Below, one piece after another: positions 637 through 806 of a DNA stretch of 1,058 bases. How positions within the stretch are numbered: the stretch's first letter is position 1; each line of letters starts with the position of its first letter. Location: NCBI RefSeq assembly GCF_003334335.1, contig NZ_QOWQ01000126.1. One strand, written 5' to 3'. The notes beneath the pieces were generated by a model. It made no database searches. It saw only the letters and a list, made by a program, of their open reading frames with translations, and was not told where the DNA came from. A program made the position numbers and the translations under genes. The DNA is from Escherichia coli (GTDB taxonomy: Bacteria; Pseudomonadota; Gammaproteobacteria; Enterobacterales; Enterobacteriaceae).

Positions 637-643
637 TGTGACG

Positions 644-649
644 TTCCTT
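644..649 (-). promoter_or_regulatory. Shine-Dalgarno sequence for the TerB-family CDS.
   Basis: Minus-strand AAAGGAACGUCACA-AUG: AAGGAA lies 7 nt upstream of the ATG at 636..634. Confidence 0.6.
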
Positions 650-768
650 TGGGTGGGTGAGCCAACGCCCGGGAGCGATCTGCCCACAGAGAAAGTCACA
701 CTGACCACTCCGTAAGCTCACCCCCGAAAGGCTCTGTGGTTGATATGCGCCGGGCGTGGCGCGGAGAC

Positions 769-792
769 AAAAAAGGCCCGCAAAAGCGAGCC
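769..792 (-). terminator. Rho-independent terminator ending the tRNA array.
   Basis: On the minus-strand RNA: GGCUCGC-UUUU-GCGGGCC, a 7-bp GC-rich stem (one U-G wobble) with a 4-nt loop, followed immediately by UUUUUU. It begins 14 nt after the 3' CCA of tRNA-Arg(UCU). On the plus strand the same hairpin has a C-A mismatch and is followed by GGGAAAAA, not a U tract, so it is unidirectional. Confidence 0.65.
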
Positions 793-806
793 GGGAAAAA
801 TAAGTC

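Follow-up and report, generated by a model that had tools for sequence, protein, structure and literature searches.

A terminator and a conserved, apparently pseudoknotted leader RNA precede the tciA-tciB cargo genes of an Escherichia coli prophage

Gene content of the locus

The stretch analyzed here, called the window throughout, comprises 1,058 nucleotides (nt) of Escherichia coli DNA (assembly GCF_003334335.1, contig NZ_QOWQ01000126.1). Its central element is the 132-nt leader (768-637) that separates a terminator, placed after three phage tRNA genes, from tciA, the first gene of a two-gene cassette. Comparative analysis indicates that this leader contains a conserved pseudoknotted RNA, and promoter scans find no convincing site within it. 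All features of interest lie on the minus strand, and coordinates are given in descending order where the direction of the sequence matters.

The cluster ileZ-argN-argO opens with ileZ (983-1058, anticodon CAU), identified by ARAGORN, by the Rfam tRNA model (72.5 bits) and in the RefSeq and Shiga toxin (Stx) phage annotation. It continues with argN (tRNA-Arg(UCG), 897-973) and argO (tRNA-Arg(UCU), 807-883), each identified by ARAGORN, Rfam and Stx-phage annotation. ARAGORN labels the first of the three a tRNA-Met (anticodon CAT), and the RefSeq and Stx-phage records label it a tRNA-Ile; the name ileZ implies a lysidine-modified CAU anticodon, and the two annotations differ by convention only.

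The gene tciA (205-636) encodes a TerB-family protein of 143 amino acids, recognized as an open reading frame, by RefSeq and by its match to PHROG 632 ('tellurite resistance', E 6.5e-69). Its coding sequence starts at the ATG at 636-634, in agreement with RefSeq. The downstream gene tciB (44-208) encodes a small DUF3927 membrane protein of 54 amino acids (open reading frame; RefSeq; PHROG 1470, 'TciB-like', E 3.1e-24), and its GUG start overlaps the tciA stop codon. Two other reading frames were rejected, a longer TciA beginning at the GTG at 708 (open reading frame 205-708) and a 24-amino-acid frame at 770-696: both are broken by 1-nt indels in relatives, and both lack a Shine-Dalgarno (SD) sequence.

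A prophage of E. coli JE86-ST05 includes the entire window at 100% identity, and ABU 83972 carries it at 99%. Of 5426 complete E. coli genomes, 3069 contain related sequence, and coverage of the window reaches 80% or more in 781 of these. In the source genome, the genes follow one another on one strand in the order RusA, antiterminator Q, a small open reading frame, a DNA methyltransferase, the three tRNAs, TerB, DUF3927, a nanS-p-type esterase, holin, lysozyme and terminase. The locus is the cargo slot of a lambdoid late operon, the site equivalent to that of stx. Just beyond window position 1, 66 nt past the tciB stop, lies the small RNA STnc100 (RF02076, 143 bits; 10081-10286 of the source locus, L001), which ends at a terminator. 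A convergent terminator-like site at 10315-10294 of L001 agrees with the 'convergent sRNA' layout described for the cargo site.

The terminator after argO

The first-pass annotation placed an intrinsic terminator after the tRNA genes, and this assignment holds. The stem-loop GGCUCGC-UUUU-GCGGGCC (792-775) has seven pairs (six G-C and one U.G), a 4-nt loop and a predicted energy of -12.9 kcal/mol, and is followed by a U6 tract (774-769) evident from the sequence itself, the consensus scan and the comparison of upstream contexts. It is the sole minus-strand terminator-like site returned by the consensus scan, and the sequence after it reads TTTTTTGTCT (RNA: UUUUUUGU). The terminator is one-directional, as the reverse strand has no T-run.

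By pattern alone, the site does not exceed chance expectation (two sites in the window, 1.4 expected by the consensus scan); what makes it convincing is the comparative record. Among 72 distinct sequences upstream of the leader, drawn from viral, metagenomic and genomic loci, a hairpin with a T-run stands 5-24 nt before the leader in nearly all lambdoid copies, built from at least ten different stems. The stem of the window itself recurs in compensatory versions (GGCTCAC/GTGGGCC, GGTTCGC/GCGGACC and GGCTCGC/GCGAGCC). An identical hairpin and U-tract precede stx2A by 57 nt in a Stx2a phage (L227 2753-2843; window 758-792). Stem replacement and compensatory change thus indicate that this is an intrinsic terminator hairpin kept by selection, with a termination efficiency (792-769) that is predicted from its sequence. 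In two loci, L116 and L214, the adjacent terminator is missing, and a conserved insert of ∼165 nt (...GGTCGCTGG...GACCGAAGCC...) lies between an upstream terminator and the first hairpin of the leader; L214 also shows, by eye, an apparent tRNA 3' end.

Fold of the leader RNA

The structured leader RNA spans 762-645, or 118 nt. It opens with the P0 hairpin (762-747; stem 762-758/751-747, loop ACGCCC at 757-752), recovered by RNAalifold and with five of six pairs changed on both sides. The 5' strand of P1 (CCACAGAG, 739-732), known in five pair variants, is followed by the junction J1/2 (CCUUUCGG, 731-724), which contains a nearly invariant CCUUU (731-727), and by the 5' strand of P2 (GGGUGAGCU, 723-715). 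P2 is paired in 98.3% of cells and mostly invariant, with C-G/U.G variation at one pair. The 5' strand of P3 (GGAGUG, 711-706) covaries with 677-672. The P4 hairpin, GGUCA-GUG-UGACU (706-702/698-694; 706-694 overall), is paired in 99.3% of cells with one-sided changes only; it is present in the enterobacterial prophage type, and other sequence takes its place in jumbo phages. The 3' strand of P1 (CUCUGUGG, 691-684) lies inside the loop closed by P3, as both the hand-registered alignment described below (A2) and RNAalifold place it. A2 also defines the 3' strands of P3 (CGCUCC, 677-672) and P2 (GGCUCACCC, 663-655). Between these two strands, GGGCG (670-666) pairs with the P0 loop (756-752) in 100% of cells, forming a loop pseudoknot. 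The SD region AAAGGA (650-645), 8 nt before the AUG, is recognized from its sequence and is conserved in all variants.

Several of these helices persist through extensive sequence replacement. P1 occurs as CCACAGAG/CUCUGUGG, CCGUAGAG/CUCUACGG, CCAUGGAG/CUCCAUGG, CCGCAGA/UCUGCGG and CCACAA/UUGUGG, and P3 as GGAGUG/CGCUCC, GGAAU/AUUCC, GGAGUG/CACUCC and GGG../..CCC. The loop pseudoknot takes the forms CGCCC/GGGCG, CGCUC/GAGCG (both sides changed in 16 of 33 sequences), GGCUC/GAGCC and CGUCC/GGGCG. P1 crosses P2 and P3, and this crossing represents either a second pseudoknot, making the RNA doubly pseudoknotted, or a set of alternative folds. An extended helix, P3b (705-701/682-678), was rejected: it fits more poorly than P4, has an A.A mismatch in the E. 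coli type and cannot coexist with P1, since only one base would link them.

Statistical support comes from alignment A2, in which 33 sequences are kept in register by N padding. Across 39 pairs, 94.5% of pair cells hold standard pairs, vs 29-44% when the partners are slid by 1-3 columns. Sixteen pairs are changed on both sides, vs 8.2 +/- 1.6 in shuffled alignments (a count reached in none of 500), and the double changes fall in P0, P1, P3 and the loop pseudoknot. From an alignment made fully automatically, RNAalifold recovers P0 and P1 with eight compensatory pairs. Taken as sequence evidence, these patterns indicate that the leader is a conserved pseudoknotted RNA.

Absence of a promoter in the leader

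The search for a promoter bears out the earlier view that 637..768 contains no convincing -35/-10 pair. Between 806 and 637, the minus strand yields no sigma-70-type site in the consensus scan. In the position-weight scan, the best leader site (TTGGCT-19-CACAAT) reaches 4.7 bits, below the mean best score of shuffled sequences (5.5), and is equalled or beaten by 66% of 500 shuffles. On the same scale, the pR' candidate of the locus scores 10.8 bits and the promoter just upstream of ileZ 10.6 bits. The two hexamers that had been named as best candidates are present (TTGGCT at 665-660, TTACGG at 715-710). Two sites picked out by eye are taken as chance: a sigma-54-like TGGC...CCCA, in which the -12 element is missing, and a sigma-E-like GGAAC...TCAAA, which spans the start codon. 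The tciA leader therefore lacks the feature by which a moron is classically recognized, a sigma-70 promoter directly before the cargo gene.

The fold provides independent support for this absence. Because the first covarying helix starts at 762, 6 nt past the U-tract, the RNA must begin upstream of the whole leader, and there is no room for a promoter between terminator and leader. P0 must itself be part of the transcript, since covariation ties P0 and its loop to bases 90 nt further downstream, and a start inside the leader would truncate the selected structure. These constraints bear directly on the idea that a weak or unconventional promoter, in or overlapping the leader, drives tciA-tciB in the lysogen and makes the cassette a self-contained moron. 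Morons often come with a promoter of their own (Juhala et al. 2000, as cited in PMC4104026), and the best candidates are TTGTCT(770-765)-17-CATATC and TTGTCT-19-TATCAA. However, these score only 3.7-4.2 bits, less than the shuffle mean; most relatives have TTGTAT or another sequence in place of TTGTCT; the jumbo phages keep the RNA but not the hexamers; and a start past such -10 elements would drop P0 from the RNA. An internal promoter is thus highly improbable, and the covarying P0 argues against the unconventional promoter that the first-pass annotation had allowed as an alternative.

On the plus strand, opposite tciA, a terminator-like hairpin with a T-run (TCCGCAGCCGCTCTGCGGG TTTTCTTTTT, 593-611) and a promoter-like TTTAAA-18-GATAAT (388-417, 9/12 match) may be chance matches.

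Distribution and conservation of the leader

The leader travels with its cassette across unrelated sequence contexts. In the aligned upstream regions of 80 viral loci encoding close TciA relatives, the gene keeps its hairpin, T-run and leader even if the tRNAs have given way to unrelated DNA. A DNA search with the leader alone matches Klebsiella and Actinobacillus phages and, unexpectedly, lytic 240-kilobase jumbo phages (Machinavirus) that infect Erwinia and Salmonella; the latter share window 735-644 at 74-77% identity. These jumbo phages carry, in turn, tRNA-Cys, the leader, terB, DUF3927 and a TAXI-type binding protein, and the element begins 1-2 nt past the CCA end of the tRNA-Cys. Among species-representative genomes, copies occur in Franconibacter, Pantoea, Buttiauxella, Leclercia, Citrobacter and another enterobacterium, and three more distant terB genes in the same set have no leader. 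In prophage L099 (4784-5884), the leader stands directly before a gene other than terB, encoding a 281-amino-acid signal-peptide protein related to the TAXI-family TRAP solute-binding subunits (78.9 bits, a little below the curated cut-off) and followed by a 59-amino-acid membrane protein. The leader is thus found 5' of two TerB clades, which share 41% protein identity, and of one TAXI-like protein, always in the same orientation and always ending 5-9 nt before AAAGG. It has no terminator of its own downstream and always adjoins the SD of the next gene.

The known distribution is confined to phages of Enterobacterales. Scans of viral contigs and metagenomes for further P1 variants yielded, apart from GC-rich false positives, only the jumbo-phage type and L116, and this small number of kinds suggests a narrow family. 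No relevant match to the 4227 families of Rfam 15 was obtained for the E. coli, Klebsiella, Buttiauxella, CwR94 or jumbo-phage variants at E <= 1-10. The overlaps seen at E <= 10 are at chance level (Six3os1_3, 17.4 bits with a gathering score of 40, on the opposite strand; mmgR, 15.4 bits with a gathering score of 41), and only the tRNAs reach a gathering score. The literature found on tciA/tciB, TerB-DUF3927 and terB-linked RNA elements contains no leader RNA, which is apparently an undescribed RNA module of phage terB cassettes. A metagenome-assembled locus labelled Bacillota (L219) has a degenerate leader upstream of terB, in which several pairs of P0, P1, P2 and the pseudoknot are disrupted; this copy is possibly decaying, and the Bacillota label looks doubtful for an enterobacterial-type prophage.

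Conservation of the leader exceeds that of the gene behind it. Between the E. coli type and the Klebsiella/Citrobacter type, the leader is 82-86% identical, vs 59% for terB DNA and 42-43% for the protein. The sequences thus indicate a leader better conserved than the Klebsiella/Citrobacter-type terB. This difference weighs against a passive spacer, in which terminator read-through alone would set expression. Both the absent promoter and the late-operon context would suit such a spacer, and the first-pass annotation had in effect treated the leader as one. Nevertheless, the 16 compensatory pairs, the conservation above that of coding sequence and the sharing of the leader with unrelated jumbo phages leave little room for that view, and we regard it as very unlikely.

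The strand order of the fold raises the question of catalysis. Read 5' to 3' (P1 5', P2/P3 5', small hairpin, P1 3', P3/P2 3'), it is that of a nested double pseudoknot and recalls the topology of ribozymes of the hepatitis delta virus (HDV) kind. A self-cleaving or processing element could free the cargo mRNA from upstream tRNA or from the short transcript of pR', leaving a protected 5' end. Strong conservation of single-stranded stretches, as seen here, is typical of RNAs that catalyse a reaction or bind a ligand, and the jumbo-phage element directly follows a tRNA, much as HDV-like theta ribozymes adjoin phage tRNAs (PMC10879173). The likeness ends with overall strand order and, in the jumbo phages only, tRNA adjacency. 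HDV-like and theta ribozymes are recognized by a P1-P2-P3-P1.1-(P4) double pseudoknot with L3/J1-4 pairing, by a catalytic C in J4/2 and by a tRNA within 5 nt on either side. The leader lacks the P1.1/L3 and P4 features: the loop of the hairpin at the HDV P3/L3 position, at 3 nt, is too short to form P1.1, and the HDV P4 equivalent is missing. Conversely, P0 and its pseudoknot are extra elements with no HDV counterpart. No variant matches a Rfam ribozyme family even at E <= 10, the lambdoid copies are mostly not tRNA-adjacent (L009 and L099 have no tRNA in the retrieved locus at all), and theta ribozymes are reported from Bacteroidota and Bacillota phages. A ribozyme is therefore an unlikely, though not negligible, explanation.

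The small-RNA-rich cargo site suggests another option, a stable non-coding RNA released from the 5' untranslated region that would act in trans, as a sponge or protein binder, and would not regulate tciA. A C/A-rich stretch in the leader (CACCCACCCAAAGG) resembles what we presume to be small-RNA target or sponge sequence. STnc100 lies close by, and the anti-small RNAs AgvB and AsxR map to the same cargo site (PMC4104026); PasA is placed after nanS-p and not at the leader site (bioRxiv 10.64898/2026.05.13.724894). STnc100/PasD, AgvB and AsxR share with the leader the neighbourhood downstream of pR', but they lie 3' of cargo and have their own terminators, whereas the leader lies 5' of cargo, has no terminator and matches none of their Rfam models (PMC4104026; bioRxiv 10.64898/2026.05.13.724894). 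Its constant orientation, its invariable contact with a downstream SD and its position before three different first genes also argue against release and action in trans, a possibility that we rate slightly below that of a ribozyme.

Finally, the inverted repeats could function as DNA, as a target for recombination or insertion. In PPompW prophages, the IS110-family element ISEc20 is inserted within the leader at about window 721, after the P1 5' strand and J1/2 (L228 3076-4534). In those prophages, terminase genes follow ISEc20, and the terB cassette and lysis genes are missing. The counts of G.U and A.C cells in A2 (given below) are not decisive on this point. However, the crossing pairings (P1 with P2/P3, the P0 loop with 670-666) are impossible in double-stranded DNA, the element is fixed in orientation and adjoins a ribosome-binding site, and a single insertion-sequence lineage was seen. 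A DNA-level site is the least probable of the explanations considered.

Transcription of the cargo

The genes flanking the window suggest where transcription of the cassette would begin. Q, a pR'-like promoter and tR' are found on the same strand ∼1.9 kilobases upstream, with the lysis genes on the downstream side. In L001, Q occupies 6654-7337, the promoter-like site 7327-7355, a terminator 7410-7424 and the cargo 9423-10015, with holin at 13217. The pR'/tR' candidate, just after Q, consists of TTGCAA-17-TATATT with a hairpin and T-run ∼55 nt further on; two more terminator-like sites lie between it and the tRNAs, and others follow tciB. L099, L103 and L117 likewise have their cargo between Q-like and lysis genes. 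The arrangement is most compact in the Klebsiella-type loci (L103 ∼4690-4790; L220, L221), where TTGACT-18-TATGCT comes immediately after Q and would yield a transcript of ∼45 nt ending at a CCCGC...GCGGG-U7 terminator (pR'/tR'). There, the leader begins 15 nt after tR', so that the hairpin directly before it is tR' itself, and by this reading of the sequence the cassette comes first in the late transcript.

The tRNAs appear to have a promoter of their own. A sigma-70-like TTGAAG-17-TATTAT (10.6 bits) ends 9 nt before ileZ (L001 8963-8991, just outside the window, upstream of 1058) and is conserved in the Stx2a phage as TTGCAG-17-TATTAT (L227 2463-2491). The three tRNAs and the terminator look like an independent transcription unit, possibly active in lysogens, and the terminator would be needed so that this promoter does not drive the cargo.

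In Stx phages, a Q-modified, terminator-resistant polymerase that starts at pR' transcribes stx and the late genes (PMC6266700, PMC10462455), and the region downstream of pR' is where cargo genes and small RNAs are inserted (PMC4104026). By analogy, read-through by Q-modified polymerase is the best-supported route to tciA-tciB, which would probably be made only when the prophage turns lytic. Dependence on Q and on induction is predicted here from the genomic context and from the published stx work. A function in lytic growth is also suggested by the strictly lytic jumbo phages, which carry the same leader-terB-DUF3927 cassette and have no lysogenic state. Of the two routes offered by the first-pass annotation, read-through from an upstream late promoter gains from Q, pR'/tR', the terminator shared with stx2A and the Klebsiella-type tR', and the unconventional promoter is not supported.

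A model for control of the cassette

These observations are combined in a model that we consider probable on balance. The terminator (792-769) would end the ileZ-argN-argO unit and shield the cargo from ordinary RNA polymerase. The 132-nt leader would be transcribed only by a polymerase able to pass this terminator, one that started at pR' and was made terminator-resistant by Q, so that tciA-tciB would be expressed late in the lytic cycle, like stx2. Once transcribed, the leader fold (762-645: P0, P1-P4 and the pseudoknot from the P0 loop to the strand between P3 and P2) would control translation of the first cargo gene. The pseudoknotted core would decide whether the SD is free, exposing or hiding it in response to a ligand, a protein or temperature, in the manner of a riboswitch. 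A candidate anti-SD exists: CCUUU (731-727) is complementary to the SD AAAGG (650-646), the pairing is possible in 98.8% of cells, and, across a small internal loop, it would lengthen P2 on its outer side. Minimum-energy folding predicts this helix in three of six representatives, and both of its strands are almost invariant. The leader is most likely a cis-acting translational control element, with any regulatory role being predicted from these features.

Several points weigh against this model or limit it. Alignment A2 was registered by hand (with P0 and P1 confirmed automatically), and few independent lineages stand behind the covariation: the E. coli type, several Klebsiella-type variants, L116, L217, L224 and the jumbo phages. 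So little changes in P2 and the anti-SD/SD helix that covariation neither confirms nor refutes them. G.U and A.C cells number 89 and 60, respectively, which does not settle which strand is structured. The pairings do not distinguish coexistence of P1 with P2/P3 from alternation between them. In the minimum-energy folds, the SD is only partly paired, with a probability of being unpaired of 0.25-0.62. The tRNA promoter could also leak through the terminator and give some cargo expression in lysogens.

A more specific version of the model is put forward tentatively, as a possibility that falls well short of the general account. The complex fold, the conserved junctions and the different first genes favour a ligand- or state-sensing RNA over a simple stabilizing hairpin. 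The 118-nt leader could accordingly represent a new phage-borne riboswitch class, or another ligand- or state-sensing RNA, that gates translation of a TerB-DUF3927 (sometimes TAXI-type) cassette during lytic growth. It would be common to temperate lambdoid phages of E. coli, Klebsiella, Pantoea and Citrobacter, where it occupies the Shiga-toxin slot, and to virulent Erwinia and Salmonella jumbo phages. The leader is compact, combines two crossing interactions and moves as a module between very different phages. Should it prove to sense a cell state or a small molecule, it would join the few phage-specific RNA sensors and would offer a handle on the role of the TerB-DUF3927 cassette in infection.

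Comparison with known systems

Among the closest parallels are translational riboswitches and other pseudoknotted control elements of 5' untranslated regions. The SAM-II and preQ1-II classes are pseudoknotted translational riboswitches that sequester the SD. The leader resembles them in its covarying pseudoknotted fold directly upstream of an SD, its conserved single-stranded junctions, its possible anti-SD/SD helix and its association with more than one type of downstream gene. Unlike SAM-II and preQ1-II, it has no Rfam match, its distribution is narrow and confined to phages, and the helix of its expression platform is without informative variation.

A close genomic parallel is the stx2AB locus of 933W-type Stx2a phages. 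Both loci share the order Q, pR'/tR', methylase, ileZ-argN-argO, terminator, cargo, nanS-p and lysis genes, and both place their cargo behind terminators in a Q-dependent late transcript, a dependence reported for Stx phages (PMC6266700, PMC10462455) and predicted for the present locus. Shared DNA extends from the tRNAs to window 758 at 95-96% identity. Homology stops inside the 5' strand of P0, placing a swapped-cargo boundary within the RNA element, and because it ends in this first helix, the leader marks a recombination boundary of the stx cargo slot. Beyond that boundary, the two loci diverge: the Stx2a phage has an unrelated 57-nt leader and stx2AB, whereas the present locus has a 132-nt leader with a 118-nt structured RNA and tciA-tciB. 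The arrangement of a terminator without a promoter is thus already-known biology of the stx cargo slot, and the same logic, with literally the same terminator, ties Shiga toxin 2 production to prophage induction.

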